64,000 bases of DNA from an uncultured Bacteroidales bacterium (GCA_902788315.1 CADAJS010000001.1:171962-235961), one strand, 5' to 3'; counted from the first letter of the stretch, positions 21,413 through 40,333 are shown. The notes: generated by a model not told the origin, from the sequence alone. Numbers and translations are program-made.

Positions 21413-21987
21413 TTCCGTATGAACGTTATCTGTCCGTCTTTCGAAATCTTCACTATCTGGCTCGGCTTGCCTTTCGTCACGTCATTCTGCCTTGCCTTCA
21501 TCACATAGTCCACTCCCTGGATTATCTCGGGAGAGATCTCCATGAAGTTACGCGGTGCAGGCTGTCCGCTCAGATTGGCGCTCGTGCTGACGACGGCGCG
21601 CTGGAAGCGGTAGCACAGGTCGTGGCTGATGCGCTCGCGGGTAACACGGATGGCTATGCTGCCGTCCTGGGCCACAAGGTTGGGTGCCAGGTTGAGTGCC
21701 CCATCGACAATCAGCGTGAGGGGGTTCTGAGCATAGTCGATGAGGTCCCACGCCACGTCGGGGATCGAGCGTGAGTACTGTTGCATGCGATTAGGACTGT
21801 CCACCAGGCAGATGAGCGCCTTCGAGTCGTCGCGCTGCTTCAACTCATAGATGCGACGCACGGCATCGGCATTCGTGGCATCGCAGCCAATGCCCCAGAT
21901 GGTATCGGTGGGGTACAGAATGAGTCCGCCGCTGCGCATCGTCTGCACCGCCTGCTGAATGTCTTCTGCAATTTCTTTCTGTGTCAT
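21409..21987 (-). CDS. tsaC: L-threonylcarbamoyladenylate synthase (YrdC/TsaC type)
   Basis: The YrdC fold is indicated by GGLILYPTDTIWGIGCDA and VSTSANLSG. The gene overlaps the ClC gene by 4 bp. Confidence 0.85.
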   Translation of the reverse strand: MTQKEIAEDIQQAVQTMRSGGLILYPTDTIWGIGCDATNADAVRRIYELKQRDDSKALICLVDSPNRMQQYSRSIPDVAWDLIDYAQNPLTLIVDGALNLAPNLVAQDGSIAIRVTRERISHDLCYRFQRAVVSTSANLSGQPAPRNFMEISPEIIQGVDYVMKARQNDVTKGKPSQIVKISKDGQITFIRK

Positions 21988-22052
21988 TATCTGATGATCC
22001 TTATTCCTCTATATTCTATTCCTTACTCTTTAATCCTCTCCCTATCGCGCCA

Positions 22053-22060
22053 CAAAGATA
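22053..22060 (-). promoter_or_regulatory. Bacteroidetes -7 box (TAtcTTTG) for the tsaC-ClC operon
   Basis: The + strand CAAAGATA lies 66 nt upstream of the tsaC ATG. Confidence 0.5.
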
Positions 22061-22224
22061 CTGCTTTTTCATCGGAAAACAGCCCGACAAGGAAACATTT
22101 ATTGAACGAAAGGGAAAAAAACAGGAAAGGGGGAACAAATTTATCCGCATGGGGTATCTCCTACTTTCAAGATAGACTTACTAATGAATAAAAACTAAGT
22201 CCAATTATCTAAATCCTGTAAGTT

Positions 22225-23220
22225 ATGAAACAAAAAGAAGAAAAACATCCGAAGTCGAAGACGAAGTTCCTTGAGTTCATTTACAGTGAGATTGCGCGGC
22301 AGCGGGAGAATGGACATATCAGCGTGGCCAACAACTACGCCAGTGCGGCACACAGCTTCTCCCGATTCCTCAAGACAAAGAACAAGGCAGACATCTCTTT
22401 CAGGAAGATAACCTCGCTGGTGATGTCGGATTATGAGGCCTGGCTACAGACCTGTGGTCTGTGCCGTAACACGACCTCGTTCTATATCCGTGCCTTGCAG
22501 TCCGTCTATCACAAGGCTGTGCGTCAATGCCTTACGGAAGACCGCCGTCCGTTCAGTGGGACCTACCGCGGCGTAGCAAGAACCGCGAAGCGAGCCATCG
22601 ATGCGTCAGAGATCTGCCAGCTGAGCAGGCTCGACATACGCAGCGCCCTGCTGTCAGGCGGCGACTATGAACAAGGAAAGCGACTGGACAACATGCAGCG
22701 GCAGTTGGAGTTTGCCCGCGACATCTTCATCTTCTGCTTCTGCGCCCGCGGATTGACCTTCGTGGATTTGGCTCACATGCGGAAGACGAACGTCACGGGC
22801 AGCCTTCTGGTCTATGTGCGACGCAAGACGAAGCAACGCATCGAGGTACAGGTGGAGCCGATGATGCAGGCCGTCATCGACCGCTACCCCTCGCAGACCG
22901 ACTATCTCCTTCCCATACTGACAAAGACAGGCAGCCCTGAGGCCGTCTATCAGCAGTACCGATACGCTCTCGGGCGCTATAATGCCAGCCTTAACACATT
23001 GGGGGCGATGCTGGACGGACTGAAGCTCACCTCCTACGTCAGCCGCCATTCGTGGGCCTCGGCAGCACGCCGGCAACACGTCCCCCTCTCCATCATCAGC
23101 CAGTCCATGGGGCACAACTCGGAGAAGACCACGGAGATTTACCTGAAGTCACTCGAATGCAACGTCATCAACAAGACCAACCATGACTTGCTGAACAACG
23201 TGTTCCAGAATGCAAAGTAA
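22225..23220 (+). CDS. tyrosine site-specific recombinase (phage integrase family)
   Basis: An N-terminal SAM-like domain is present. The catalytic residues appear in ARGLTFVDLAHMR, SRHSWASAARR and MGHNSEKTTEIYL (R..HxxR..H..Y). Confidence 0.85.
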   Translation: MKQKEEKHPKSKTKFLEFIYSEIARQRENGHISVANNYASAAHSFSRFLKTKNKADISFRKITSLVMSDYEAWLQTCGLCRNTTSFYIRALQSVYHKAVRQCLTEDRRPFSGTYRGVARTAKRAIDASEICQLSRLDIRSALLSGGDYEQGKRLDNMQRQLEFARDIFIFCFCARGLTFVDLAHMRKTNVTGSLLVYVRRKTKQRIEVQVEPMMQAVIDRYPSQTDYLLPILTKTGSPEAVYQQYRYALGRYNASLNTLGAMLDGLKLTSYVSRHSWASAARRQHVPLSIISQSMGHNSEKTTEIYLKSLECNVINKTNHDLLNNVFQNAK

Positions 23221-23261
23221 AGCGGAAATATCCACAACGAGTATAAAATGAAAGCGTGTGT

Positions 23262-23524
23262 CTCTCTTGCATAGAGAGATCGTGAATCGCCTGCAAAGGT
23301 AATCAAATTATTTGAAACAAATAACAAAACAGTAGAAATAATTTATCAAGACTATTATTTTTATGCGCCATTAGACGAAATTTAAAGTTCTGCGTGCATT
23401 CGGTGAATATATCTGATGCCTGAGATGTGGGAAAAGGAAAAAATCACTTTTGCTTGCATCTGTCGTGTTCAAATATATTCATCCCCAGCCGATTGGCACA
23501 CGTGTGTCTCTCTATGCAAGAGAG
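23262..23524. promoter_or_regulatory. candidate invertible promoter segment bounded by 18-nt inverted repeats
   Basis: CTCTCTTGCATAGAGAGA at 23262-23279 has its exact reverse complement at 23507-23524. The enclosed 227 bp is AT-rich and carries a reverse-strand TAccTTTG box at 23294-23301. Confidence 0.5.
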
Positions 23525-23686
23525 GCAGTGATTTTGGTGCATCGGGCACCTAAAATAGTAGTCTTTGCATGTCGCTTCAAAATAAGTACATAGAAGACGA
23601 AGTTCTCCGACGGATATCCCGTCATGTTCTGCATCACTTGATGCGGAGTCCCCAAGAATTTGTCTTTACACAACTGCGCTGAACGA

Positions 23687-24271
23687 ATGGAAGGGTATGC
23701 AGCAGATAGCATTCAGGCAGCACCGGACGTCATCGTGCGGTGGTACCCCATGAGGATTTTCCACTCCAGCGTCAAGCGACAGGAGAAGCTGAACGAACTG
23801 CTCGCCAACGATGCGCACGTCGAGAGGACATACATCCCTTTGCGGCTGATTGATGCCGAGGAAAAGACATACGTGCCCGCACTCGTCAATTACATCTTCC
23901 TGCGCACATCGCTGAAACATCTGAGGAAAATCAAAGCCGACAAGGCAAAATACAACAACCTGCGCTATGTCATGGCCATCGGCCTTGACGAGAAGCTCAA
24001 TCCGTTCACGAAAATTGCTTATGTGCCCGAAAAACAGATGGAGGACTTCATGCGCGTCATCGACAACGGCAATGAACAGGTCGTCTTGCTCGAGAACCTC
24101 GGCTTCGCCTGCCGCCCGGGTGAGACGGTCCGCATCACGAACGGCCTGTTCGAAGGCGTCGAAGGCATCCTAAAGAGCATCAAGAAACACCTCTGTGTGG
24201 TCATCCCCATCAAGGGAGTCATGGCCGTTGCCATCACAAATGTCCCGAGGAAATACCTGCAAAAGGTATAA
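23687..24271 (+). CDS. upxY: UpxY-family (NusG-like) transcription antiterminator
   Basis: The NGN-like N-terminus reads RWYPMRIFHSS...NYIFLRTS. The KOW motif reads GETVRITNGLFEGVEGIL. The position at the head of a polysaccharide locus fits. The start is set at the ATG at 23687. Confidence 0.75.
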   Translation: MEGYAADSIQAAPDVIVRWYPMRIFHSSVKRQEKLNELLANDAHVERTYIPLRLIDAEEKTYVPALVNYIFLRTSLKHLRKIKADKAKYNNLRYVMAIGLDEKLNPFTKIAYVPEKQMEDFMRVIDNGNEQVVLLENLGFACRPGETVRITNGLFEGVEGILKSIKKHLCVVIPIKGVMAVAITNVPRKYLQKV

Positions 24272-24328
24272 AGATACATATAAATATATAAGGCACGCGC
24301 GCGTAAGGCGATTTTCACACAAAAAAAA

Positions 24329-24433
24329 CTGCAAAACCTACACACATGTTCGACAACAGATTGATTGTCTGCGCGTAGCCAGTGTGTAGGTTTTGGTGTA
24401 GGGCGGCCGAAATCGTGTAGGTTATGCCTACAC
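24329..24433. repeat. cluster of CAAAACCTACAC / GTGTAGG motifs (left flank of the VirE module)
   Basis: CTGCAAAACCTACAC lies at 24329-24343. The inverted partner GTGTAGGTTTTG lies at 24384-24395. Further GTGTAGG copies lie at 24396 and 24415. CCTACAC at 24427-24433 forms the palindrome GTGTAGG-ttatg-CCTACAC over the VirE stop codon. Confidence 0.8.
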
Positions 24434-26542
24434 TTTGGCCCTTACATAGAATTCGCTACCGCTATTGCTGCGCCGAAACGGCAAGTCCGGCAGTCCATGC
24501 AGGATGCGACCGAAGGCGTTGGTGGCGGGTGCCTGGAGGAGGGAACCGGCTCGTTTCTTGATATGGAGCAGGATAGCGGTGGTGGACATCCACTGCCCCA
24601 CCTCGCCCTCCGCGGCAATCTCGAAATACTGATGGAAGAACATCTCGGCGTCGGTCTGCTTCTGGAAGCGTCGGTTGTACGCCATGACGACGGCCGTCTC
24701 GGCGTCGTTGAACCAGTAGCGCGCACCGGCGTTCAGCTCGGCCTGCGCCTGGGCATAGAGCTGCGCATGGTTGGGCGTCTGGCTGACATCGATGTCTCCC
24801 GTCACCTGTATGCCGAGGAAGCGGCGTGAACCCGTGGGGTCGGTGAGCACGTCGGCCATGTTCGTCGTCGCGATGAACGAGGCAAGCCGCGGCACCTCCT
24901 CCGTATGGCGGGCGTAGGGCCGCTTCACCTTGACGGAAGGCAGTTGCAGGATGTTCTTCAGGAACCCTTGCTGCAGTCTTGGCGAGATGCGGTTGAACTC
25001 GTCGAGGTTGATGAGGAGCATCTGCGCCATTGCCAGATGGACATTCCGCTCGTCGCTGAGCGAGAGGTTGTCGGTATAGCCCCACTGGCGCAGTTCGGGC
25101 GGCAGCAGCGAACGGCAGAAAGCGCTCTTGTGCATGCCCTGCTCCGAGACGAGCAGCGGCACGATGGCATTTCCGTATCGCGTGTCGCGTCCCTGCCATT
25201 GCGCCACCATGGCCAGGAACCATGTGTGGAACCACTCGGCCCACTGCGCCGCGTTGTCCGTGGGCACGGTGGCGGCAAGGGCGCGGATATGGTCGTGTCC
25301 GTCCCAGTGCGGGAGAGTGTCGAAGAGATAGTGCTCGACGGGATTGTAGTCGCGCACACGGGTGGAATTCACGTAGCGGCGCACGTCGCGGTCCCATGCG
25401 TCGAGGCCCGCCAGCTGAAGGTCGGTGGAGAACGTGTTGATGACCTTCTCCGTGACGGGTTGCCAGGGCGTGTTCCAGCTATGGTTGGGCCGATATTCGA
25501 CATACCCCATGACGGTATTGAATCGGAACACATAGCGGCTCTCCATGCGGCGGATAATCTGCTGCATGAGCGGTTCGCCCACGGCCGGCGAGGGCTGTCG
25601 CCGACGCGTCCGCTCCTCGTCATAGACTGACACGACGAGCATCCGCACGAAGTCCTCCGTCAGCCCTGGATAATCCTTGAACCTCAGGTGGTTCCACAGA
25701 TGGCAGACGGTCTCCTCCTCGGGCCATCCCATGCTGAAGAGCTCCGTAGCCATCGCCGTGACAAAGACCTTATACCATTCGTTGCTGTTTCGCGGGACAT
25801 TGCCTATCCGCTCTTCCACGCTGCACACAGCCTGGTCATAGGCGCGCTCGTTGTTGAAGTATGCCGTCATGTCGGCCTCCCCGAAGTCGCGTTCCTCGGG
25901 CAACGTGAGCAGATGGGCGTCAGCATTGTCGCCACGCGTCTCGATGGCGTCCGTAGCAACAACGTGGAACGGCACTGCTTCCGGACGGGTCATCGGCCTC
26001 GGGTCGAGCGGCATCAGGAAGGCGTGGCGCAGCGAGGGCGTCATGCGCGTGATGCGGCAAGGGAGCAGGGAGTCATAGACAGGCGTCACACGATGATAGG
26101 CCTGTGCATAGAAGTACTCGGCCTCCGTCTCCGTCGTGGGCACCGTGCCGTCGGGGCGCGACACGCGCACCAGCAGGATGACCTCCGTGCCGGTGACACC
26201 CGTGAAGGCCGCCAGCGTCGAGGGCATCGTCATCGCCGCACGCTTCACGTCCTCGCAGTCTCGCCGGCCCATGAGCTGACGCACCTCCAGGACAACCAGG
26301 CCATTGAAACGGGCGACTCCCGTGGCGCCGTTCGCCTGACGATACAGCTCCACGGCGGCTGCCACCTGCGGGATCTCAGCGTAGCGCCGGTATTGGCGGA
26401 TGCGGTCCGGCGTCGTCTCAAGGCGCAGGCTCCCAATGAGGTTTCTGCTTGCATCCGTCTGGATGCGTTCGAAGAACTTGGCGCTGTCCCACAGCCGGAG
26501 ATGTTCGCCTTGCTTGTCTGTCTTTAATGTAGAGAATTTCAT
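24428..26542 (-). CDS. VirE-family (virulence-associated protein E / primase-helicase-like P-loop) protein
   Basis: The Walker-A-like motif is LVSEQGMHKSAF and the Walker B motif is LLINLDEF. PRLASFIATTN...DPTGSRRFLGIQV matches the VirE family pattern. A long N-terminal domain is present. Confidence 0.75.
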   Translation of the reverse strand: MKFSTLKTDKQGEHLRLWDSAKFFERIQTDASRNLIGSLRLETTPDRIRQYRRYAEIPQVAAAVELYRQANGATGVARFNGLVVLEVRQLMGRRDCEDVKRAAMTMPSTLAAFTGVTGTEVILLVRVSRPDGTVPTTETEAEYFYAQAYHRVTPVYDSLLPCRITRMTPSLRHAFLMPLDPRPMTRPEAVPFHVVATDAIETRGDNADAHLLTLPEERDFGEADMTAYFNNERAYDQAVCSVEERIGNVPRNSNEWYKVFVTAMATELFSMGWPEEETVCHLWNHLRFKDYPGLTEDFVRMLVVSVYDEERTRRRQPSPAVGEPLMQQIIRRMESRYVFRFNTVMGYVEYRPNHSWNTPWQPVTEKVINTFSTDLQLAGLDAWDRDVRRYVNSTRVRDYNPVEHYLFDTLPHWDGHDHIRALAATVPTDNAAQWAEWFHTWFLAMVAQWQGRDTRYGNAIVPLLVSEQGMHKSAFCRSLLPPELRQWGYTDNLSLSDERNVHLAMAQMLLINLDEFNRISPRLQQGFLKNILQLPSVKVKRPYARHTEEVPRLASFIATTNMADVLTDPTGSRRFLGIQVTGDIDVSQTPNHAQLYAQAQAELNAGARYWFNDAETAVVMAYNRRFQKQTDAEMFFHQYFEIAAEGEVGQWMSTTAILLHIKKRAGSLLQAPATNAFGRILHGLPDLPFRRSNSGSEFYVRAKV

Positions 26543-26600
26543 AGAGATGTTGTTGTATTCTTATAGTTAAAACTCTTGTTTCGCAAAGTGTCGCACGGGA

Positions 26601-26642
26601 TTTTATCACACGTGATAAAACAGTTTATCACACGTGATAAAA
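26601..26642. promoter_or_regulatory. two tandem copies of the 20-bp near-palindrome TTTTATCACACGTGATAAAA (operator/iteron-like)
   Basis: Copies lie at 26601-26620 and 26624-26642, offset by 22 bp. They sit between the 143-aa gene and the VirE-family gene. The same motif recurs at 61401-61465. Confidence 0.7.
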
Positions 26643-26655
26643 CCTCCCGAAGCGG

Positions 26656-27087
26656 TCAGGGGAAATAATACTCGAGGGAAGCGGCGTCGTACTCGGGCTC
26701 GTGGTCAATGCCGTGCGAGCGGAACAGCTGTGCGACGCGCTCCTGCAGTACGGGCGTGATGACATAGCGCCCGTTTCGGTAGCGGTAGTATTGCGGCTGG
26801 CTGCCAAAGATGCCGTACAGCGCGTGGCGGAGAGCCATGAGTTTCTCGGGTGGCAGGCCGCGGAGCAGGTGCCGCATGCCACGCGCCATCCGGACCGGCT
26901 CTTTCGAGGCAAAGAGGCTGCAGCCGTCGCCCTGCAGGGCGCCGGGCAGCCCGGTGGCGTGCTGTGCGAGACCGACCGGAGCCAGCAGGCCGACGGCGTG
27001 GCGAAGACAGGATTCTGCCATCGGGCAGTCGTGTTGGAAACAGAGCGCCCAGTCATCGGGCGCGAGAGAGTAAGTGAGTTCTTGCAT
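26656..27087 (-). CDS. hypothetical protein (143 aa) upstream of and co-oriented with the VirE-family gene
   Basis: The ORF has a Cys/His-rich N-terminus (CFQHDCPMAESCLRH). A -7 box lies at 27134-27141. I did not recognise a family. Confidence 0.55.
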   Translation of the reverse strand: MQELTYSLAPDDWALCFQHDCPMAESCLRHAVGLLAPVGLAQHATGLPGALQGDGCSLFASKEPVRMARGMRHLLRGLPPEKLMALRHALYGIFGSQPQYYRYRNGRYVITPVLQERVAQLFRSHGIDHEPEYDAASLEYYFP

Positions 27088-27133
27088 TTCTTCTTCCTTT
27101 TTCAGATGTTACCATTACGTTCACATTTCTCTG

Positions 27134-27141
27134 CAAAGATA
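27134..27141 (-). promoter_or_regulatory. Bacteroidetes -7 box (TAtcTTTG) for the 143-aa / VirE operon
   Basis: The + strand CAAAGATA lies 47 nt upstream of the reverse-strand ATG at 27087. Confidence 0.5.
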
Positions 27142-27164
27142 CAAAAATAACGCCGAAAATGCAA

Positions 27165-27263
27165 GCAAAACCTACACTTTTTCGCCGAACCTACACAGAA
27201 ACATACACACAGATAAATCCGAGATAATAAAGCAAATAACCATTCCGAGTGTAGGTTTTGCAG
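27165..27263. repeat. cluster of CAAAACCTACAC / GTGTAGG motifs (right flank of the VirE module)
   Basis: GCAAAACCTACAC lies at 27165-27177 and CCTACAC at 27190-27196. GTGTAGGTTTTGCAG at 27249-27263 is the exact reverse complement of 24329-24343. Confidence 0.8.
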
Positions 27264-27383
27264 TTTTATTCAGGATAAATTTTACATGCATGGGATGCAA
27301 CTGACATCCCACACGCATCCGAACGATAGTCACAATAATGATTTATATGGGGACAATCATCCCCCTCGAAACTTGAAACAGAT

Positions 27384-28628
27384 ATGAAAAAAGTAATGCT
27401 TGTGTTTGGGACACGACCGGAGGCCATCAAGATGTGTCCGCTGGTGAAAGAGTTCCAGAAATATCCAGAACAGTTTGAAACGATTGTGTGCGTGACGGGA
27501 CAGCACCGCGAGATGCTGGATCAGGTGCTCACCATATTCGATGTGAAGCCCGACTTTGACCTGAATATTATGAAGCAGGGGCAGGACCTGTACGATGTCA
27601 CCGCTCGTGTCCTCACCGGTATGCGCGACGTGTTCAAAGAGTGCAAGCCCGATGTGGTGCTGGTGCACGGTGATACCACTACCAGTACTGCTGCAGCCTT
27701 GGCTGCCTTCTACCAGCAGATTCCCGTTGGTCATGTGGAAGCCGGCTTGCGCACACATAACATCTACAGTCCCTGGCCAGAAGAGATGAACCGCCAGATT
27801 ACGGGACGCATCGCCACCTACGACTTTGCCCCCACGCCGCTATCAGAAAAGAACTTGCAAGAGGAAAAAGCACAAGGCAAGATCTTCGTTACCGGCAATA
27901 CCGTCATTGATGCTCTCCACATGGTGGTGGAGAAACTAAAAAGCGACAAGGACCTGGCTAAAGAGCAAATCCATGTGCTTGCTGATGCAGGTTATGACGT
28001 GACTCGTCTGGACGAAGGCAAAAAGCTGGTCCTCATCACCGGCCATCGTCGCGAGAACTTTGGTGAAGGCTTTATCAGCATGGTTACCGCCATGAAAGAC
28101 CTCTCAGAGAAATACCCTGATGTCGATTTCGTCTATCCCATGCATCTTAACCCCAATGTGCGCAAACCCATCGCGCAGGTCTTTGGAGAAGAATATTTCC
28201 GTCAACGTGATGAACTAAAAACTATCAACGATCCACTGACTTTAAACTCTAAACTTTCCACTTTAAACTTCAGGAACGTGTTCCTGATCGAGCCATTGCA
28301 GTACTTAGAGTTCGTCTATCTGATGGAGAAGAGCACCGTGGTGCTGACCGACAGCGGTGGCATTCAGGAGGAAGCTCCTGGACTAGGTAAGCCTGTGCTG
28401 GTTATGCGCGACACCACCGAACGTCCTGAAGCCCTGAAGAGCGGCACCGTCCACCTCGTGGGCACTAATCACGACCTCATCGTCTCCGAGGTCAGCACCC
28501 TGCTTGATGATGCATCAGCTTATGAACGCATGTCCAAAGCCGTGAACCCTTACGGTGATGGCAAAGCTTGCTCACGCATAGTGCGTGCACTCAAAGGTGA
28601 AGAAGTTGAAAGATACGAAGTAAAATAA
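27384..28628 (+). CDS. wecB: UDP-N-acetylglucosamine 2-epimerase (non-hydrolysing)
   Basis: VFGTRPEAIKMCP, VLVHGDTTT, GHVEAGLRT and TDSGGIQEEAPGLGKPVLVMRDTTERPE are present. The gene contains an extra in-frame segment of about 26 aa at 28188-28274. Confidence 0.9.
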   Translation: MKKVMLVFGTRPEAIKMCPLVKEFQKYPEQFETIVCVTGQHREMLDQVLTIFDVKPDFDLNIMKQGQDLYDVTARVLTGMRDVFKECKPDVVLVHGDTTTSTAAALAAFYQQIPVGHVEAGLRTHNIYSPWPEEMNRQITGRIATYDFAPTPLSEKNLQEEKAQGKIFVTGNTVIDALHMVVEKLKSDKDLAKEQIHVLADAGYDVTRLDEGKKLVLITGHRRENFGEGFISMVTAMKDLSEKYPDVDFVYPMHLNPNVRKPIAQVFGEEYFRQRDELKTINDPLTLNSKLSTLNFRNVFLIEPLQYLEFVYLMEKSTVVLTDSGGIQEEAPGLGKPVLVMRDTTERPEALKSGTVHLVGTNHDLIVSEVSTLLDDASAYERMSKAVNPYGDGKACSRIVRALKGEEVERYEVK

Positions 28629-28643
28629 ATAACACATATACAA

Positions 28644-29867
28644 ATGATTAACGTAATTGGCTTAGGCTATATTGGCCTTCCTACGGCCCTTATGATGGCC
28701 TCCCACGGAGTGGAAGTAATCGGAACGGATTACAACAAAGAGTTAGTGGCAACCCTCAATGCTGGCAAGACCACCTTCAAGGAGGATGGCCTCGACGAAC
28801 TCTTCCAGGCCGCTGTAAAGGCGGGTATCAAGTTCACCACCGAGTACCAGAAGACAGATATGTATATTGTGTCTGTTCCCACTCCTTACGACAAGTTCAG
28901 CAAAAAGGTGGATGCTTGCTATGTGGTGGCTGCCGTGAAAGAAGTCATGAAGGTGTGCCCGAAGGGCGCTACCGTCGTCATCGAATCCACTGTCAGTCCC
29001 GGCACCATTGACAAGTTCGTGCGTCCTGTCATCGAGGCAAACGGCTTCCGTATTGGCGAAGACATCAACCTCGTACACGCCCCCGAGCGCATCATCCCCG
29101 GCAACATGGTTTACGAGCTGCTGCACAACAACCGTACCATTGGTGCAGACTCGAAGGCGATTGGCGAAAAGGTGAAGCAGTACTATGCTTCTTTCTGTCA
29201 GGGTGAAATTGTGGTTACCGACATCCGTACTGCAGAAATGACCAAGGTGGTAGAAAACACCTACCGGGCTGTGAATATTGCCTTTGCCAACGAGCTGTCG
29301 AGAATTTGCCGTCACGACAATATGGATGTGTATGAGATTATCAAGATATGCAACATGCACCCCCGTGTGAACATTCTGCAGCCCGGCCCTGGCGTGGGCG
29401 GTCACTGCATCTCTGTTGATCCTTGGTTCTTGGTAGGTGACTATCCCCAGCTGGCCAAGGTGATTGACGAGAGTATGAAGACCAACGACTACCAGCCCGT
29501 GTTCGTTCTCGAACGGATTCACGAAATCATGGAAAAACATGGAATTACGGATAATCGGAAGGTTGGATTATACGGATTGACCTACAAGGAGAACGTGGAC
29601 GACATCCGCGAGAGCCCCACACTCCAGATGCTCGACATCCAGGAGCGCCACCTCGCCCGTCCGCTCAAGACCTTCGACCCCTTCTTCACCGAGAAAGAAA
29701 TTGTCAAGAACCAGATTCTCGACTTCGACCAGTTCCTCGATGAGGTAGATATGATAGTCATCATGGTCAAGCACGACCATATCAAACAGAATTGGGATAA
29801 GCTGAAGGGCAAAGTAATTCTGGATTGCCACAATATCTGTCCGTTAGAGGGAGTTTATCACATATAA
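28644..29867 (+). CDS. wecC: UDP-N-acetyl-D-mannosamine dehydrogenase
   Basis: The NAD-binding motif is VIGLGYIGLPTA. This is the UDP-glucose/GDP-mannose dehydrogenase family, with the catalytic Cys in GPGVGGHCISVDP. The gene lies directly after wecB. Confidence 0.9.
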   Translation: MINVIGLGYIGLPTALMMASHGVEVIGTDYNKELVATLNAGKTTFKEDGLDELFQAAVKAGIKFTTEYQKTDMYIVSVPTPYDKFSKKVDACYVVAAVKEVMKVCPKGATVVIESTVSPGTIDKFVRPVIEANGFRIGEDINLVHAPERIIPGNMVYELLHNNRTIGADSKAIGEKVKQYYASFCQGEIVVTDIRTAEMTKVVENTYRAVNIAFANELSRICRHDNMDVYEIIKICNMHPRVNILQPGPGVGGHCISVDPWFLVGDYPQLAKVIDESMKTNDYQPVFVLERIHEIMEKHGITDNRKVGLYGLTYKENVDDIRESPTLQMLDIQERHLARPLKTFDPFFTEKEIVKNQILDFDQFLDEVDMIVIMVKHDHIKQNWDKLKGKVILDCHNICPLEGVYHI

Positions 29868-29882
29868 AATCTAACATCTAAC

Positions 29883-29925
29883 GATTGCCACAATATCTGT
29901 CTATTGTAGGGAGTGTATCGTATCT
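29883..29925 (+). pseudogene. degenerate duplicate of the wecC 3' end (recombination scar)
   Basis: GATTGCCACAATATCTGTC (29883-29901) is identical to 29823-29841 inside wecC and then diverges. It sits exactly at the switch to AT-rich DNA. Confidence 0.55.
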
Positions 29926-30139
29926 AAACGCTGGTCCGCTGGTACAAACAGTAGAAGAAATATTGCTCAAATATTTGGAAGTCTCGTATCCCCCAAAAAG
30001 TCTGGGATGAGAATTGGTGGATAATACATCTTACGTCTGCCATCTTACAACAGGCATCAAACAAAACGGGAATTACCGCTGGTTTCTTAAAAAAAAATGG
30101 TCTCTTAAAAGTATAAAAGAGACTTGACATTTAATAAAA

Positions 30140-30889
30140 ATGAACATAGGAATAATTATTCAGGCCCGATTGGGATCTACTCGTTTACCCGGTAAGATTT
30201 TGAAGCCGTTTTATGGGGATAAAACATTGCTGGAAATAGTAATCAGTAATATGCAGAAAGCTGGGGAAGCAAAGATCATTGTGGCAACCTCAGTTAATCC
30301 TAATAATGATAAGTTAGAGACATTCCTCAATGAACGTAATATAACAGTCTTTAGAGGCTCTGAGGATGATGTGCTTAGTCGTTTTATTGGAACGGCTGAA
30401 ACAAATGGTGTAGATGGCATAGTTCGTATTTGCTCTGACAATCCATTTTTGGATTGGCATGGTGTAACAGCACTCATTGAAAAGGCTAAGACCTGCGATG
30501 CTGACTATATAGGATATAGGATAAACAATACCCCTTCTATTAAAACACATTTTGGATTCTGGGGCGAGTTTGTTACGTTAGATGCCCTTAAACGTGTGGC
30601 AGCAGCTACAGATGAAAAGTCGGCCCATGAACATGTGACAATCTATATCTATACGCATCCTGACGAATACAAATGTGAGTGGATTGAGTGTCCTGAGTAT
30701 TTACAGGGGCGGAACAATATCCGTCTTACTGTGGATAACCTCGAGGACTTTGAAAATGCACAGAAGGTTTACACGGTCCTGTACGAAAATAATCCCGATT
30801 TTGGTTTGGAGGATGTCGTAAATTGCATTGATAAACATGCAGAGTTGCGTGACTCGATGAAACAAATGATAGAGAATAATCAAAAATAA
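30140..30889 (+). CDS. cytidylyltransferase-family protein (SpsF / acylneuraminate cytidylyltransferase-like)
   Basis: IIIQARLGSTRLPGKILKP and RGSEDDVLSRF are hallmarks of the CMP-sugar synthetase-like SpsF group. Confidence 0.75.
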   Translation: MNIGIIIQARLGSTRLPGKILKPFYGDKTLLEIVISNMQKAGEAKIIVATSVNPNNDKLETFLNERNITVFRGSEDDVLSRFIGTAETNGVDGIVRICSDNPFLDWHGVTALIEKAKTCDADYIGYRINNTPSIKTHFGFWGEFVTLDALKRVAAATDEKSAHEHVTIYIYTHPDEYKCEWIECPEYLQGRNNIRLTVDNLEDFENAQKVYTVLYENNPDFGLEDVVNCIDKHAELRDSMKQMIENNQK

Positions 30890-30897
30890 ATAATGTC

Positions 30898-32459
<1,562 letters not shown>

Positions 32460-32806
32460 TTCCGCGTTATAAGTAGCCATTACACACTTCGTTAAGCAAT
32501 GCCACCATTTCTGGACGAACAGGTTTGTAAATCGCGAGCGTTAAAGAGTATGGAAGAACGTTTTATTATTATAATTGAAAGATGTTGGAAAGCCGAGCAT
32601 CTTTATTGTCTTTCGTAATTATCTGGATTGTTAGAGCGTTTTTCCAAAATATTATGATAATAGAATGAATACATATAGAGAATTATTGTGGCTACTGCTT
32701 CATCTATAACCGATAACTAGGCTGGGATACTACAGCAGTTTGCTTTGTATATAGAGTATACCATAAAAAGATTGAGATCTGTATAAATAATATTGAAGTG
32801 ATATAA

Positions 32807-34084
32807 ATGATAAATGATAATAAGATTAGGAATTTTGTATCAAAGAATAAGCTTCTGATAGAGAATATGTCATATTTATCTTTGTTAGAGGTATTTATAA
32901 TGGTCGCCCCCCTATTAACTTATCCCTATCTTGTTAGGGTTCTAGGTTTGGAGCTTTATGGCTTTATTATTACAGCTCAAGCTCTAGCGAGTTATGCTTC
33001 AAAAATAATAGATTTTGGTTCCAACAAGGTTTGCGCTAAACATGTTGCGATAAATAGAGGTAATGAGTGCAGATTAAGTGAAATATTCAATTCTGTGTTG
33101 ATTATTAGAATTTCTTTGTGTCTTATTTGTTTCCTTATATATCTTTTTGTCGTTCTATTAGTAGATTTATATCGAAATTATCTATTGCTTTTTATACTTT
33201 CATATGGATTGACATTCAACGAAGTGTTGTTTCCTCAGTATTTTTTTCAGGGAATGGAAAAGATGCGATATTCTTCGCTAATTAACATATTGATAAAGCT
33301 ATTGTTTATTGTTCTAGTTTTTTTTGTTGTAAAAAATGAAGGTGATTATTTATTGGTACCAGTTATGTATTCTATAGGCTATATCATTGCAGGGCTTATT
33401 TCTTTGTATATTGTATATAAAAAAATGGGGCTTAATTTCTATTTTCCAAAAATGAAAGAAATGAGTGTTTATTTCAAGGATTCTATGCCAATATTTGCTA
33501 CAGACATGATCTGTTTAGTTAAAGATAAGCTAAGCTATTTTATTATGGGGCCTTATGCGGGTATGAGCAATGTGGTTCTATATGATTTAGGATTAAAAAT
33601 TAATTCTTTATTAGTAAAACCTGTACAGATAATTTCAATGGCAATTTTCCCTCAGTCAGCAAGAATTAAGGAGAAAAAAAGAATTAAAAAAATCCTATAT
33701 GTGGTATCTATACTATCCATATCAATTGTTCTTATGGCAAATGTGTTTTTGAAACCTATTGTAGAATTCTTTATTGCAAACCAAGATGTTAATCTGCTTC
33801 CCATACGAATTTTTACTCTTGCACCTATTTTTTTATCTGTTAGTACGTTTTTAAGTTCTAATATTTTTGTTGCATGGGGTTATAATAAATATATGCTTTA
33901 CAGTATTATCATTACAGTACTAGTATATGTAATAACTCTCATACTCGTATTTATGTCAGGACATATAGCCAGCATGTACGCCTTCGTCTTAATTGCATTA
34001 GTTTCATATTTTGTTGAGCTCATTTATAGAATAATAATAAGTGCTATAATTGTTAATTTGGAATCAAAGAAACAAGGCGCATGA
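32807..34084 (+). CDS. wzx: Wzx-type polysaccharide flippase (MOP superfamily)
   Basis: The protein is 425 aa with about 12 TM segments and the typical polysaccharide-biosynthesis-protein N-terminus. Its coding DNA is AT-rich. Confidence 0.75.
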   Translation: MINDNKIRNFVSKNKLLIENMSYLSLLEVFIMVAPLLTYPYLVRVLGLELYGFIITAQALASYASKIIDFGSNKVCAKHVAINRGNECRLSEIFNSVLIIRISLCLICFLIYLFVVLLVDLYRNYLLLFILSYGLTFNEVLFPQYFFQGMEKMRYSSLINILIKLLFIVLVFFVVKNEGDYLLVPVMYSIGYIIAGLISLYIVYKKMGLNFYFPKMKEMSVYFKDSMPIFATDMICLVKDKLSYFIMGPYAGMSNVVLYDLGLKINSLLVKPVQIISMAIFPQSARIKEKKRIKKILYVVSILSISIVLMANVFLKPIVEFFIANQDVNLLPIRIFTLAPIFLSVSTFLSSNIFVAWGYNKYMLYSIIITVLVYVITLILVFMSGHIASMYAFVLIALVSYFVELIYRIIISAIIVNLESKKQGA

Positions 34085-34096
34085 AAAGAAGAAAAT

Positions 34097-35224
34097 ATGT
34101 ATATATCTTCGGCTATTTTCTATTTTTTTGTTATTTCTATTGTTTACACTCTCATCAAAAGAGGTGAGCAAATTAAATCTAACCAGTTAATAATAACATC
34201 ATATGTTATTTTATGGTTAATAACAATCATTCGATTTGATATAGGTAATGATTATGACAATTACATGACTCTTATCGATTATCATATACAATTATTTAAT
34301 CAAAACTTCACTCCTCTTGCGGCTTATAATTATTTTGATGGAAGAACAGAATTATCTCTAAGTGTATTTACATATGTTTTCCGATGGACACATACTCCAT
34401 TTTTTTGGGTTATAGCTTTTTATTCCACATTATTTTATATTTTTATTTTTCTGACTTTTGACTCCTACAAATCTCATTCCACAGGAGTCTTATTATTCTT
34501 TATCAGTGGATTTATGTTTTGTTCTTGGGATTGGATTAGGCAAGGCCTTTCGATTATAATTGTTCTTTATTCTTTTTCGTGTTTGCAAAATAAAAAAATA
34601 ATTATCTACTTCTTATGTATTGGGTTAGCTTTTTTTATACACTACTCTGCATTAGTCGGTTTGCTATTTATCTTATTAGATAGATTTAATATTAAGAATA
34701 GAATCGCAATATTATTTTTATTGACTATTTTATTATTGTACATTTTTAATGCATTTAATAATACCGTAGAGAAAACGGGCCTTTATTTTAGATATCTTGG
34801 GGGGTATGACACATATACAGATACAGAAGCAACGGTAAGAACATTTTCATCCTGGAATTATAAATTAAGAACGATCACTTATACTATGTTGTGGATAAGT
34901 ATGATATTTTCTTTGCCTTATGACTCAAAACTTGAAAAAAATGCATTAATTCTTGGAGCAGTTATTTTTATCATTGGATCCGGAAGCCTTGTATTTACAA
35001 GAATTTCATGGTATTTTATAGTTCCATCTTTCTGCTTGCTTAAGGATGTTCTAAAGAATAATCATGGTGTTAGAAACATTGTTATTGCTTTAATGTTGGT
35101 TATGAGTGGTTTATTATTTCGTGACATTGCAATAAATAAAAATTGTAGAGGTTGTTCTCCTTACGAAACAATCTTTTCTGATGAATTCAAGACTCAACGA
35201 TTGAGAATTTCTGATAGACAATAG
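34097..35224 (+). CDS. wzy: EpsG-family / Wzy-type polysaccharide polymerase
   Basis: The protein is polytopic and highly hydrophobic (375 aa). It follows wzx and has the aromatic-rich loops typical of EpsG/Wzy proteins. Confidence 0.65.
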   Translation: MYISSAIFYFFVISIVYTLIKRGEQIKSNQLIITSYVILWLITIIRFDIGNDYDNYMTLIDYHIQLFNQNFTPLAAYNYFDGRTELSLSVFTYVFRWTHTPFFWVIAFYSTLFYIFIFLTFDSYKSHSTGVLLFFISGFMFCSWDWIRQGLSIIIVLYSFSCLQNKKIIIYFLCIGLAFFIHYSALVGLLFILLDRFNIKNRIAILFLLTILLLYIFNAFNNTVEKTGLYFRYLGGYDTYTDTEATVRTFSSWNYKLRTITYTMLWISMIFSLPYDSKLEKNALILGAVIFIIGSGSLVFTRISWYFIVPSFCLLKDVLKNNHGVRNIVIALMLVMSGLLFRDIAINKNCRGCSPYETIFSDEFKTQRLRISDRQ

Positions 35225-35260
35225 CATAATAATAAGAAGAATAACTAAAAATGAAAGAAT

Positions 35261-36478
35261 ATGAAAGAAGTTCATATTATTAAGTCTGGTTCTCTTAGAG
35301 CCACAATTGGGCCAATTGGAACAATACGAAGGATCTTAAGTTCTCGTTTGTTTTTGAATGAGAAAGGCTATGATGTTAAGTTGTTTTCAGGGAATAAAAT
35401 GATAGACCGATTTCCAACATTTACAGAAAAAAATGACACAACAACAAAGAAGAGAAGGCTAAAATTGTTTTTGGATAATTTAGCAAAGAAATGGTTTCTT
35501 TTAGCTGTAATACTGATAGAATATAAATGGGTGACACACAAATTTTTCATAAAAAAATACCATAAGCTTAATCAGCCTTGTGATATTGCAGTATTTCATG
35601 CAGAATTGGAGTGTTATTACTTTCTAAAAAAGCAGACAAAAAGGAAAAAGAAGACCAAAACCGTGCTCTTCTTTCATAATGACGGAATTCCACTTCAAAT
35701 GTATTTGATATATTATCCGTGTATTGCTAATAGCTGGTATTACCGCGTACTGATGAAAAGATTTGAATATACACTGAGGAATGTTGATGGCTGTGCTTTT
35801 ATTTGCAGAGTTGGCATGGAGAATATCATCAATAGGTATTCATTTGTAAGGGAAAAGTCTTATCTAATAGTTAATGGTATAACTGATCTCAACGAAAGTG
35901 ATTTGGCCGATGCTACAATTATTAGAACATCTGCAGACAAGACAAAACTAAAACTTGTCACTGTCGGTTCTGTTTCTATAAGGAAAGGGCAGCGATATAT
36001 AATTGAGGCAATCAGCAAACTTCCTCATAATGTTCGAGACAGAATTCACCTACACATCGTGGGCGATGGACCTGACTGCCAGTACTGCAAGCAGAAGGTT
36101 GAAAGCGGGGGACTAAATAGTTTAGTTACATTTTGGGGGGGGATCCTTAATTCAGAAGTTTATAAAGTATTAGCAGAATCTGATGTTTTTGTTTTATTAA
36201 GTTCGAATGAAGGTCTTCCGATATCTATTATCGAGGCAATGCGAGGAGGGTTGCCAATTATATCTACTGATGTATCTGGCATACCTGAATTAGTATCATA
36301 TAATAATGGTGTCATATTAGATAGCTCAAATCGAGCAGATAGTTTCTATAATCTTCTGATAAATAGTAGTCAATTTGATTGGAAAACTATGGGACATAAT
36401 TCACGTAAGGCCTATGAGGAATGGTATACATTCGACAGAATGTTAAATAAATATGTTAGCATGTTAAACTCAATGTAG
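35261..36478 (+). CDS. glycosyltransferase family 4 (GT-B)
   Basis: The C-terminal E-x7-E region reads SNEGLPISIIEAMRGGLPIISTDVSGIPELV. Confidence 0.85.
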   Translation: MKEVHIIKSGSLRATIGPIGTIRRILSSRLFLNEKGYDVKLFSGNKMIDRFPTFTEKNDTTTKKRRLKLFLDNLAKKWFLLAVILIEYKWVTHKFFIKKYHKLNQPCDIAVFHAELECYYFLKKQTKRKKKTKTVLFFHNDGIPLQMYLIYYPCIANSWYYRVLMKRFEYTLRNVDGCAFICRVGMENIINRYSFVREKSYLIVNGITDLNESDLADATIIRTSADKTKLKLVTVGSVSIRKGQRYIIEAISKLPHNVRDRIHLHIVGDGPDCQYCKQKVESGGLNSLVTFWGGILNSEVYKVLAESDVFVLLSSNEGLPISIIEAMRGGLPIISTDVSGIPELVSYNNGVILDSSNRADSFYNLLINSSQFDWKTMGHNSRKAYEEWYTFDRMLNKYVSMLNSM

Positions 36479-36575
36479 TCAAAATCCATTTAATTTATAC
36501 TGTTATCGTTCTATATAAGAGTAGAATGTTTTTACACAGAACAAATACTCAACCTGTTTTCCAAAGACAACATAT

Positions 36576-37088
36576 ATGAGCATTTCTAAATTCTTAAAAA
36601 AGATTGTAAGGGAAGTTTTATATAAAATTCCATTCAAAAGGCAGGTAGTAAAATACGGCAATGATATGAATATCAATCATTTTTCCTATATTTCAACAAA
36701 TGCAGAGGTGTATATTGGAGATAATTGTAATATTAATGGTCTCAAAGTATTAGGGAAAGGCAAAGTTACTATTGGAGACAATTTCCATTGCGGCGAAGGG
36801 CTTTTGATTATGCTTGGATCCCATGAGTACGATAATGATGATTATATCCCATATGGCGAAAAACTTACGAGTAAAGAAGTCGTTATTTGTGATAATGTAT
36901 GGTTGGGACGCGATGTGACGGTTTCTGGTAATGTCAAAATTGGAGAAGGGGCAATTGCCGCGACAAGAGCTGTTATTGTAAAAGATGTTCCGCCATGCGC
37001 GATAGTTGGAGGTAATCCTGCGAAAATAATAAAGTTCCGTAATAAGGAGCACTATTATCATCTGAAGGAGTTGAAAAAATTTCATTAA
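36576..37088 (+). CDS. hexapeptide-repeat (LbH) O-acetyltransferase
   Basis: Left-handed beta-helix repeats read IGDNCNINGL...IGDNFHCGEGL...ICDNVWLGRDVTVSGNVKIGEGAIAA...VGGNPAKI. Confidence 0.8.
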   Translation: MSISKFLKKIVREVLYKIPFKRQVVKYGNDMNINHFSYISTNAEVYIGDNCNINGLKVLGKGKVTIGDNFHCGEGLLIMLGSHEYDNDDYIPYGEKLTSKEVVICDNVWLGRDVTVSGNVKIGEGAIAATRAVIVKDVPPCAIVGGNPAKIIKFRNKEHYYHLKELKKFH

Positions 37089-37090
37089 TC

Positions 37091-38389
37091 ATGGACATTT
37101 ATAATTTAGCATACATATATTTCTCAATCGGTTATGATACTGATTATAGGAGAATGCCCAAAATTGATAAGCTTTTCTCAAAATTTTATTTAACTGGCTT
37201 CTTATTCTTTTTTTTACGGTTTATTGGTTCTTTTTTTAAATATGGTTTTTGCCTACCGAAAAGAATGGAAGATGATGGAGGGGGCTTTCTTATTTGGGGA
37301 CTAACGATTAATAACAAGACAACACTTTCTCCACTTATTACGGAATTAAAGAAAAAAGGGGAGCATATTGATGCAATAACTGATAGATCGTCATTCCCTA
37401 TGTGGAAATTGTATCTGTATTCAATAAGATATCTACCTTCTTTAATTAAAGAAATAGTAAAAGCGTCTAAAGAAAACAAGAGGATTTTTAGGAGTAGATT
37501 TGCGCTTATATGGAGAGCATACGGCAGTTATAAATTAGCTATTGAAATGCTAAATAAATACGCTCCCAAATTTGTCGTTGTGGCTTCTGATCAAGATCCT
37601 TTTGCCCGAGCTTTGGTTAGTAAGGCACGAGAAAATGATATTAGAACTGTATATGTTCAGCATGCTGCTGTTACAAATAAATTCCCACCTCTTGACTTTT
37701 CATTCTCTTTTTTGGACGGAAAAGAGTCTTTGTCAAAATATAAGCAAGCTGGAGAAATAAAAGGAACAATTGTGCTAAGTGGCGGAGTGAGGTTTGATCG
37801 AGTTTTAACCCCTCATAAATCGCCACAAAACATGGTTGGTGTTGCGATTAATACTATTGATGACAAGAAAAAAGTAAAAGAACTGTGTATGTATTTGATA
37901 TCGAATAATATCGATGTCGTTTTTCGGCCACATCCAACTATGAATAAAAGTGACTGGAAAGTATGGTGTAAAAAAAACAATGTAAGTTTTTCTGATCCAG
38001 ACAACGAAGATTCGTTTCAGTTCCTTACAGGTATAAACTTATTGGTCTCTAATCAATCTTCAATCCATTTGGATGCAGCCATTATCGGCACAAAATCTAC
38101 GCTGTACAATTTTTCAAATGGAATACAGAATGATTACTATGGTTTCCTAGCAAATGACCTTATTAAGGAATCTCATACACATGAAGAAATAATTATGTTG
38201 TTGAAGGACAACAAGGGTGTTAATACTAATGTTCGATATTATAATTCTTCTTCACAAACTGATTTTTTTGGCTATGTTTCAAAGCTAATTTGTATTATTT
38301 TGTTAGACTTATGTAATGATATAACCTTAAATGGACGGCTAAAAAAGATTGACGCAAGTGACAACTTCGTTGTTTACGATATCATATAA
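37091..38389 (+). CDS. uncharacterised protein, possible GT-B-type (non)ulosonic acid transferase
   Basis: The protein is 432 aa. VVFRPHPTMN (an HP motif) is followed about 45 aa later by LVSNQSSIHLDAAIIG. I did not recognise a named family. The gene lies next to the acetyltransferase inside the AT-rich core. Confidence 0.45.
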   Translation: MDIYNLAYIYFSIGYDTDYRRMPKIDKLFSKFYLTGFLFFFLRFIGSFFKYGFCLPKRMEDDGGGFLIWGLTINNKTTLSPLITELKKKGEHIDAITDRSSFPMWKLYLYSIRYLPSLIKEIVKASKENKRIFRSRFALIWRAYGSYKLAIEMLNKYAPKFVVVASDQDPFARALVSKARENDIRTVYVQHAAVTNKFPPLDFSFSFLDGKESLSKYKQAGEIKGTIVLSGGVRFDRVLTPHKSPQNMVGVAINTIDDKKKVKELCMYLISNNIDVVFRPHPTMNKSDWKVWCKKNNVSFSDPDNEDSFQFLTGINLLVSNQSSIHLDAAIIGTKSTLYNFSNGIQNDYYGFLANDLIKESHTHEEIIMLLKDNKGVNTNVRYYNSSSQTDFFGYVSKLICIILLDLCNDITLNGRLKKIDASDNFVVYDII

Positions 38390-38550
38390 GTTCATTATTA
38401 TATACACTTTTTTGTTATACATCATTAAATAACAAGAACCCGTGATAGAAATAAATTTTAAGTATAAAATACCATGTGAGAATTTGACATTCTCCTGATA
38501 TTTATAAAATTAAGTGAAGTTAAATATTAAGTTATCTTAACAAACAATTT

Positions 38551-39255
38551 ATGTATGGTGTTACATTTAAGAACAAGGTGAACTGCTATTCGTTCAGTTC
38601 GTTTGATGAAATAATTGACTACGTGTCGGACAAAAAGGGCATATTGGTGGCCATTAACGCCGAGAAAATTCTTCATGCCACAGACCAGACGCGTGACATC
38701 ATTAACCGCAATATTGGCTATAGCGACGGAATAGGTGCTGTGATGGCATTGAAGAAGCATGGATGCAAGGATGCCGTGAAAATACCTGGCTGTGAGCTTT
38801 GGCTGAAAATTGTAGAAAAACTGGTTCCGCAGGGGAAAAGCTTTTATTTGGTGGGAGGCAAGCAGGAAGTGATTGAAAAGACCATAACAAGGCTGAAAGA
38901 GGATTTCAAAGGTATCCAGATTGTGGGGTATCGAAATGGATACATCAAAACTGATAAAGAGAAGCAGGATTTGATTGCGGACATCGTGGATAAGAAGCCA
39001 GATGTGGTGTTTGTGGCTATGGGGAGTCCGAAACAAGAGTTATTGATGGAGGAAATGAATAAACGTCATAGAGCAATATATCAAGGCTTAGGTGGTAGTT
39101 TTGATGTATATACCGGACATGTGGAACGAGCCCCTAAGTGGTGGGTTGAACATAATCTTGAGTTTGCTTACAGACTTGTGAAACAACCGAGTCGTATTAA
39201 ACGTCAGATACATCTTATAAGATTTCCTGTTATGGTGAAGCTGGGGCTGATTTGA
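38551..39255 (+). CDS. WecG/TagA/CpsF-family glycosyltransferase (GT26, ManNAc/ManNAcA transferase type)
   Basis: LVAINAEK, SDGIG, YLVGG, VAMGSPKQE and QGLGGSFDV are present, as is typical of GT26. Confidence 0.85.
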   Translation: MYGVTFKNKVNCYSFSSFDEIIDYVSDKKGILVAINAEKILHATDQTRDIINRNIGYSDGIGAVMALKKHGCKDAVKIPGCELWLKIVEKLVPQGKSFYLVGGKQEVIEKTITRLKEDFKGIQIVGYRNGYIKTDKEKQDLIADIVDKKPDVVFVAMGSPKQELLMEEMNKRHRAIYQGLGGSFDVYTGHVERAPKWWVEHNLEFAYRLVKQPSRIKRQIHLIRFPVMVKLGLI

Positions 39256-39257
39256 CC

Positions 39258-40280: not shown

Positions 40281-40333
40281 TTCTGAAGTTCTGGACTAAG
40301 GGTTTTAGAGCAAATATCTGATAAAATAACAAT

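Follow-up and report, generated by a model that had tools for sequence, protein, structure and literature searches.

Does the 227-bp AT-rich stretch that separates a tyrosine recombinase gene from upxY in an uncultured Bacteroidales bacterium invert, and does its orientation control the capsule genes further downstream? The stretch of DNA that was analysed, called the window throughout, is 64,000 nucleotides long. A first-pass annotation had proposed an invertible promoter at this position. The locus is very probably a phase-variation switch: the adjacent recombinase would invert a 227-bp promoter segment and thereby turn upxY ON or OFF, and UpxY-assisted transcription would extend to the capsule genes. 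The features of the locus are the following.

22225-23220, plus strand: tyrosine site-specific recombinase gene, 331 aa, the presumed invertase (assigned by Pfam, residues and fold)
23259-23279, no strand: left recombination site, with CTCTC at 23262-23266, spacer TTGCATA at 23267-23273 and GAGAG at 23274-23278
23280-23506, no strand: invertible segment of 227 bp in the OFF orientation, present as its reverse complement between unchanged flanks in contigs L172 and L174
23294-23301, minus strand: Bacteroidetes-type -7 box TACCTTTG, 14 nt from the left site and directed outward towards the recombinase gene
23507-23527, no strand: right recombination site, with CTCTC at 23508-23512, spacer TATGCAA at 23513-23519 and GAGAG at 23520-23524
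23528-23686, plus strand: upxY leader, with the block AGTAGTCTTTGCATGTCGCTTCAAAATAAGTACATAGAAGACGA at 23556-23600, hairpins at 23609-23623 and 23631-23644, followed by GGAGTCCCCAAGA
23687-24271, plus strand: upxY, NusG-like antiterminator of 194 aa counted from the ATG (NF033644), with an alternative TTG start at 23660
24428-27087, minus strand: opposite-strand block, consisting of a VapE-like/BT4734_N/DUF3874 gene (24428-26542) and a DUF6078 gene (26656-27087)
27384-41785, plus strand: capsule biosynthesis genes (Pfam matches)

The segment has a GC content of 33-34%, compared with ~58% in the flanks. It is bracketed by an 18-nt perfect inverted repeat, CTCTCTTGCATAGAGAGA at 23262-23279 and its reverse complement at 23507-23524, exactly as first described. 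If one mismatch is allowed, the repeat finder gives arms of 21 nt (23259-23279 and 23507-23527, 95% complementarity, 227 nt between them). This is the sole perfect inverted repeat of at least 16 nt with a gap of 50-500 nt in the 64 kb. In 200 windows simulated with a Markov-1 model, no such repeat of at least 16 nt occurred, the maximum being 15 nt. Two matches to the site occurred in 0 of 100 shuffles, and no further copy is found in the 64-kb window when up to three mismatches are allowed.

The core site of a tyrosine recombinase consists of two inverted binding half-sites that flank an asymmetric overlap region of 6-8 bp. The orientation of the overlap regions determines whether recombination leads to inversion or deletion. 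Judged by their sequence, the CTCTC-N7-GAGAG arms have the layout of such a core site. The half-sites CTCTC and GAGAG extend to about CTGCCTCTC, and the sites comprise 17-21 bp. The outer half-site of the right site, GAGAGGCAG, is kept across the family. In each arm the flanking blocks form a palindrome and the asymmetry is confined to the central 7 nt. The right spacer TATGCAA is the reverse complement of the left spacer TTGCATA, i.e. the two spacers are inverted relative to each other. Since they are oppositely oriented, recombination between the sites would invert the segment. The near-palindromic arms had raised the caveat that the sites might also be aligned directly. Such an alignment does exist (31 nt at 74%), but it results from the palindromic flanking blocks, only the 7-nt spacer being asymmetric, and the central 7 nt remain inverted.

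The TACCTTTG box on the minus strand faces the 3' end of the recombinase gene. TTTG elements are located 16 and 23 nt upstream of it (23318-23321 and 23325-23328). From this arrangement we infer that the box is an active promoter. Inversion would place it at 23485-23492, 195 nt ahead of the upxY ATG (23687). Strand, direction and distance are those given in the first-pass annotation. Its statement that the segment holds only one canonical -7 box has to be corrected, because two TAnnTTTG matches are found, both on the minus strand. The second one, TATATTTG at 23470-23477, was dropped as a promoter candidate; it is not conserved in relatives, whereas the TACCTTTG box is. A scan for sigma-70 promoters and terminators is uninformative for Bacteroidetes promoters.

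Inversion was observed by comparison of contigs of the same species. These contigs were gathered by exact-protein look-ups with the recombinase and with members of its 90%-identity cluster. Fourteen of them are informative, with recombinase genes that are 98.5-100% identical. The OFF orientation is present in 11 complete contigs (window included) and in the partial contig L173, which ends inside the segment and has an OFF-type left junction; L172 and L174 are in the ON orientation. The clearest pair is L174 (ON) and L175 (OFF), which encode an identical recombinase protein. Their flanks are identical at 599 of 600 positions on the left and 598 of 600 on the right. The 229 nt between the sites, on the other hand, agree at 225 of 229 positions when compared as reverse complements and at 62 of 229 when compared directly. 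When L175 is flipped in silico between the centres of its spacers, it agrees with L174 at 382 of 386 positions. The junctions of L172 and L174 are exactly those that a crossover within the spacer predicts: each flank retains its outer half-site, and the segment takes the inner ones with it. In L174 the TACCTTTG box is found on the plus strand at a distance of 15 nt upstream of the right site, directed towards the conserved leader and upxY. These contigs, in which ON and OFF come from different samples, show that the segment inverts in natural populations of the same species with a crossover inside the sites. Both the proposed invertibility and the assignment of the assembled orientation as OFF are thereby substantiated, the box facing the recombinase gene in the window and upxY in the flipped contigs.

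The ON state may be rare, because assemblies of the species are mostly OFF (11 complete and one partial compared with two ON). A switch locked in the OFF state was considered when exact look-ups of the recombinase and UpxY gave 9 OFF contigs out of 9. It was discarded after the cluster members had yielded the ON contigs. Within the species (L084, L085 and L175) the segment is 94.7% identical, compared with 98.7-99.1% for the recombinase gene and the upxY flank; the sites are intact. The window's own species has no match in the genome collection, where the best hit is 85% identical.

The same arrangement is found in many relatives. Many loci with 64-86% identical recombinases, retrieved by metagenome and genome scans, come from samples and MAGs of the rumen. 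In all cases where the sequence continues far enough beyond the recombinase gene, two CTCTC-N7-GAGAG sites are present at a distance of 176-238 nt. Eight spacers occur in 13 tabulated close-family loci (TTGCATA, TTACGAA, TTACAAA, TTACTAA, TTATTTA, TGACGCA, TTGCGAA and TAATGTA). In the 10 loci with both sites in register, which represent seven of the spacers, the partner site carries the exact reverse-complement spacer. Covariation of this kind within loci is what one would expect if identical spacers are required for strand exchange. A TAnnTTTG box, TACCTTTG in nearly all cases, lies 14-20 nt from one site and points outward in all close relatives examined. It faces the recombinase gene in some of them and upxY in others.

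Opposite orientations are also seen between these relatives. L012 and the MAG UBA4336 (L090) have recombinase genes that are 97% identical over 982 nt, and their 277-nt segments are 95% identical in opposite orientation. In L006 and L012 the segments are inverted with respect to each other and the half-sites are swapped. The window, when flipped in silico, is colinear with the order of promoter, site, leader and upxY in L007, L015 and L016. The same design recurs at 37-44% recombinase identity in Phocaeicola, Bacteroides, Alistipes, Odoribacter and others. In the P. vulgatus ATCC 8482 locus L106, a 41% identical recombinase is accompanied by the site CTCTC-TTACATA-GAAA, by a TACCTTTG box 11 nt from the left site and by UpxY downstream. 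Further ON/OFF pairs of the wider family are L131/L152 and L074/L075.

Two contigs are hairpin-shaped. In L005 (2207-2562) and throughout L021 the order is flank, site, segment, site and reverse-complemented flank. The two flank copies are identical to 100% in L005 and 97% in L021. In L021 the sites are ~940 bp apart and enclose a possible minus-strand ORF. L005 and L021 could be explained by mixed orientations or strains within one sample or by assembler artefacts. Together with L088 and L090, contigs that end inside a site, they would agree with both orientations being present in one sample, yet all four were kept out of the primary evidence because they are possibly artefacts of the assembler.

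In the proposed mechanism the adjacent recombinase would bind the half-sites, bring both sites together in a synapse and exchange the strands within the 7-nt spacer. In the OFF state, which is that of the window, the promoter would fire into the 3' end of the recombinase gene. In the ON state, transcription would begin just before the right site, cross it and proceed through the 160-nt leader into upxY. UpxY-assisted transcription would then carry on into the capsule genes.

The product of upxY matches the NCBIfam model NF033644 (antiterm_UpxY) over its full length (1-164 of 164) with an E-value of 1.9e-23 and 83.2 bits, below the curated cut-off of 100. A Pfam search of the product gave no match. 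The full-length match and the homologues that follow the switch in relatives agree with the earlier designation of the gene as upxY. In an alignment of eight loci the leader blocks are near-invariant, though the UpxY proteins are only 60-79% identical. An Rfam search of 21900-27500 returned no known RNA family. By analogy with the opsX pause and recruitment sites of B. fragilis, which serve as the model for this reading, the leader is probably the site where UpxY loads onto RNA polymerase (ops-like recruitment; PMC11685472). The first leader hairpin varies in sequence while its pairing is kept. After the leader hairpins, GATGCGGAGTCCCCAAGA resembles the TGCG.AG core of B. fragilis ops elements.

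The capsule genes expected downstream are indeed present on the same strand from 27384 onward according to Pfam, after the opposite-strand block. Those for the sugar part encode a UDP-GlcNAc 2-epimerase, a UDP-sugar dehydrogenase, a cytidylyltransferase, NeuB and a HAD phosphatase. The remainder encode a Wzx-type flippase, an EpsG-type polymerase, a GT1 glycosyltransferase, an acetyltransferase, WecG, NTP_transf_5 and a GT4 initiating transferase. No upxZ is present, as there is no plus-strand ORF between upxY and the opposite-strand gene at 24428.

Control of the capsule by the switch is the weak point at this locus, because 3.1 kb of opposite-strand genes lie between upxY and the capsule genes and a hairpin with a 14-bp stem (24332-24395) directly follows upxY. 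It is possible, if somewhat unlikely, that the switch governs upxY only, or upxY together with an antisense RNA to the VapE-like block, and that the capsule genes are transcribed separately or not at all. In relatives that lack the opposite-strand block, an epimerase-like gene comes directly after upxY, and the distance from upxY to the first biosynthesis gene is only 50-120 nt, which fits this possibility as do the two intervening genes and the hairpin. A separate capsule promoter is, however, not apparent: the plus strand of 27088-27384 contains no TAnnTTTG box, and this favours dependence on the upstream switch, without proving it. Furthermore, an interruption of this kind is frequent in P. 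distasonis and P. vulgatus, whose loci are nevertheless classed as capsule operons (PMC1892571), and UpxY-type factors take RNA polymerase over long distances and through terminators (PMC11685472).

The opposite-strand block has some peculiarities of its own. The motif GCAAAACCTACAC occurs nine times in the window (1.1 expected) and clusters around the VapE-like/DUF6078 block, on one side at 24331 (plus strand), 24384 (minus) and 24415 (minus) and on the other at 27165 (plus), 27184 (plus) and 27249 (minus). A 22-nt inverted repeat (24322-24343 and 27249-27270) spans 2905 nt, and each of its ends has its own hairpin with a 14-bp stem. The motif is restricted to loci of the same species. It remains after upxY in L084, where an Amidase_2 gene replaces the opposite-strand block and no VapE gene is present. 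A cassette boundary, a terminator or another site of rearrangement are possible roles of GCAAAACCTACAC. A 20-nt unit that contains a palindrome, TTTATCACACGTGATAAAAC, is perfectly duplicated in tandem at 26602-26643, where the VapE-like gene starts on one side and the DUF6078 gene ends on the other. This duplication is operator-like.

The gene at 22225-23220 had been named a tyrosine recombinase at the outset, and this assignment holds for its domains, its catalytic positions and its predicted fold. The product matches Phage_int_SAM_5 (PF13102, 58.1 bits) and Phage_integrase (PF00589, 27.9 bits with a cut-off of 27.1) in Pfam; the XerA, XerD and XerC models give weak full-length matches. R175, K201, R274, H275, H297 and Y306, assigned as catalytic residues by motif position and not by structural superposition, are invariant in 18 homologues (46-85% identity). 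In the HxxR box the first His is replaced by an invariant Tyr (Y271). The AlphaFold model (pLDDT 85.6) has the two-domain recombinase fold. A fold search of the PDB with this model gave 59 matches with E-values of at most 0.001 and TM-scores of ~0.5, similar to XerA, lambda Int and Cre. Among the 50 matches listed, all 50 are tyrosine recombinases, which also include Tn1549 Int, XerH and IntI. The PDB sequence search with the recombinase returned 0 matches, and matches were obtained by the fold search alone. From its sequence and model, the recombinase looks intact. The genes 5' of it are the housekeeping gene tsaC and a ClC channel gene, and the same synteny is found in other strains.

From the linkage conserved across the family, we infer that this adjacent recombinase is the catalyst of the inversion. 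The inversion might instead be catalysed in trans by a paralogous Tsr or by a Mpi-like serine invertase, with the adjacent gene being dispensable or acting elsewhere. There are precedents for this: in P. vulgatus single Tsr knockouts left inversion running and two paralogues cross-react (PMC12940148), and in B. fragilis one Tsr or Mpi serves distant sites. Catalysis in trans is nevertheless improbable here. In many genera, and over a range of 37% to 100% protein identity, recombinase gene and site type are found side by side; a 7-nt spacer between inverted half-sites is the layout of a tyrosine and not of a serine recombinase; and the catalytic residues are invariant.

In two contigs, L086 (2625-2670) and L087 (1215-1260), a recombinase gene of 96.7% identity is followed by a single site gtgtgtCTCTCTTGCGAAGAGAGgcagtgattt and the 227-bp segment is absent. 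This solo-site allele is promoter-less, and in it the left outer half runs directly into its right counterpart and the upxY leader. A different gene (GDPD) is located upstream of the recombinase gene in both contigs. The switch can therefore be lost, as a 97% identical recombinase is found there with a single site and no invertible segment. The single site looks like a hybrid, with the spacer TTGCGAA between a left and a right outer half, and 'integrase' is the annotation of the enzyme family. Both facts would agree with palindromes that are attL/attR-like ends of a small excisable or mobile cassette, inserted and excised by the integrase. This explanation is very improbable, as the spacers are inverted and not direct, the segment contains no gene and alleles of the same species differ by inversion and not by presence or absence. 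Furthermore, the recombinase gene is not part of the segment and shares a conserved chromosomal neighbourhood with tsaC and the ClC channel gene. That the repeat represents mere hairpin-forming palindromes (terminators or operators) that do not invert can practically be dismissed: the right arm together with GTGATTTTGG scores as a terminator-like hairpin and each arm is itself a near-palindrome, but the segment is inverted between identical flanks in the same species, and the asymmetric spacers of a locus match each other while they differ from locus to locus.

The preferred reading, a promoter switch operated by the adjacent recombinase, has a parallel in fimS of E. coli, where the tyrosine recombinases FimB and FimE are encoded beside an invertible promoter of ~300 bp with short inverted repeats. 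The half-site context of fimS changes with orientation, as it does here. fimS differs in phylum, promoter type, its 9-bp repeats, its two dedicated recombinases and its host accessory factors. In most close-family loci the left site starts 39-110 nt past the stop codon of the recombinase gene. As the OFF promoter would fire into the convergent 3' end of this gene, antisense transcription could lower the expression of the recombinase. Inversion would also convert the left site of the window into a perfect palindrome with 12-bp arms, CGTGTGTCTCTC-TTGCATA-GAGAGACACACG, and at both sites the composition of the extended half-sites depends on orientation. By analogy with the orientational control of fimE, the switch might bias itself through OFF-state antisense transcription, through orientation-dependent half-sites with unequal rates, or through both. 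This is a speculative and rather unlikely addition to the mechanism. If true, unequal ON-to-OFF and OFF-to-ON rates would explain the OFF excess of ~12:2 in the assemblies.

Capsule loci of this kind are known from gut Bacteroidales. A tyrosine recombinase is encoded immediately upstream of UpxY in 5 of 9 capsule loci of P. vulgatus, 11 of 13 of P. distasonis, 4 of 8 of B. thetaiotaomicron and 1 of 10 of B. fragilis (PMC1892571). Inversions were seen in assemblies at such loci (Xu et al. 2007, PMC1892571). Since this position of the recombinase gene upstream of upxY was described in 2007, the present locus belongs to the known Tsr-linked kind. It shares with the gut loci the order of recombinase, invertible promoter, upxY and capsule genes (PMC1892571). 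The interrupted layout is likewise already known, as the same authors reported for P. distasonis and P. vulgatus 'phage-like' blocks on the opposite strand that separate the UpxY cassette from the biosynthesis genes (Xu et al. 2007, PMC1892571). The locus differs from the known kind only in host lineage, divergence, the absent upxZ and the genes that the interposed block contains. The host belongs to an uncultured rumen lineage of ~58% GC, whose closest named records are MAGs labelled 'Bacteroidaceae bacterium' and 'Prevotellaceae bacterium'. In comparison with the human-gut species, the recombinase is only 37-44% identical and no upxZ follows upxY. The interposed block is VapE-like plus DUF6078, whereas theirs carries a T7-lysozyme-type amidase, with which the Amidase_2 gene of L084 may be compared. 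A literature search for invertible capsule promoters of the rumen or of Prevotella found nothing specific.

Knockout and complementation experiments, together with reconstitution in E. coli, have demonstrated that adjacent Tsr genes invert promoters in P. vulgatus and B. fragilis (PMC12940148). In P. vulgatus, promoters no longer invert once the adjacent Tsr genes are knocked out, and cross-reaction occurs between paralogous Tsr enzymes (PMC12940148). The enzymes BVU2677/BVU2684 and BF2766, which act on EPS and Mfa1 promoters, are also locus-adjacent and control promoters of surface-structure genes (PMC12940148, PMC4747536). Their repeat motif TACTTNNNANGTAANNGAA is unlike the CTCTC-N7-GAGAG sites described here, and one such enzyme can serve distant sites. 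Adjacent tyrosine recombinases are found as well at the S-layer/lipoprotein, restriction-enzyme and BT0292-94 loci of B. thetaiotaomicron (10.1101/521070, PMC4611039). There the recombinase gene is followed by a near-consensus promoter in imperfect palindromic repeats of 17-18 nt, often assembled OFF, and inversions beside the recombinases were verified by PCR and amplicon sequencing (10.1101/521070). These loci regulate lipoproteins or restriction enzymes and not an upxY-led capsule locus, and the comparison with them is one of layout.

The Mpi system of B. fragilis leads to the same outcome, with ON/OFF capsule promoters upstream of upxY and antitermination by UpxY. Mpi, however, is a serine recombinase that is encoded elsewhere and acts globally on seven loci, in contrast to the tyrosine recombinase beside a single site pair in the window. 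Site architecture and adjacent enzyme argue for the tyrosine rather than the Mpi serine type. The initial impression that the repeat is not of the Mpi type is in line with the CTCTC-N7-GAGAG site, which is also present beside the homologous recombinase at the P. vulgatus ATCC 8482 capsule locus; the distinction is made by site architecture and the adjacent tyrosine-type enzyme.

Beyond the cultured Bacteroides, Phocaeicola and Parabacteroides of the human gut, recombinase-linked capsule phase variation now extends to an uncultured rumen lineage of high GC; the knowledge of how such switches work is unchanged. Natural ON and OFF alleles are in hand for the species. Comparison of the loci provides a definition of the site, with conserved CTCTC/GAGAG half-sites and a free but pair-matched 7-nt spacer, that could serve to annotate such switches in metagenomes without read mapping. 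When this genome is annotated, the capsule locus is best regarded as phase-variable and, in the orientation assembled, silent.

A further arrangement is seen in the human-gut contigs L074 and L075 (3981-4560), which encode a 36% identical recombinase. Two invertible regions with the sites ATCTCCTTTTAAGAGAATTA and TCTCTCTATAAGAGAA are arranged in tandem, and the second region is present in opposite orientations in the two contigs.
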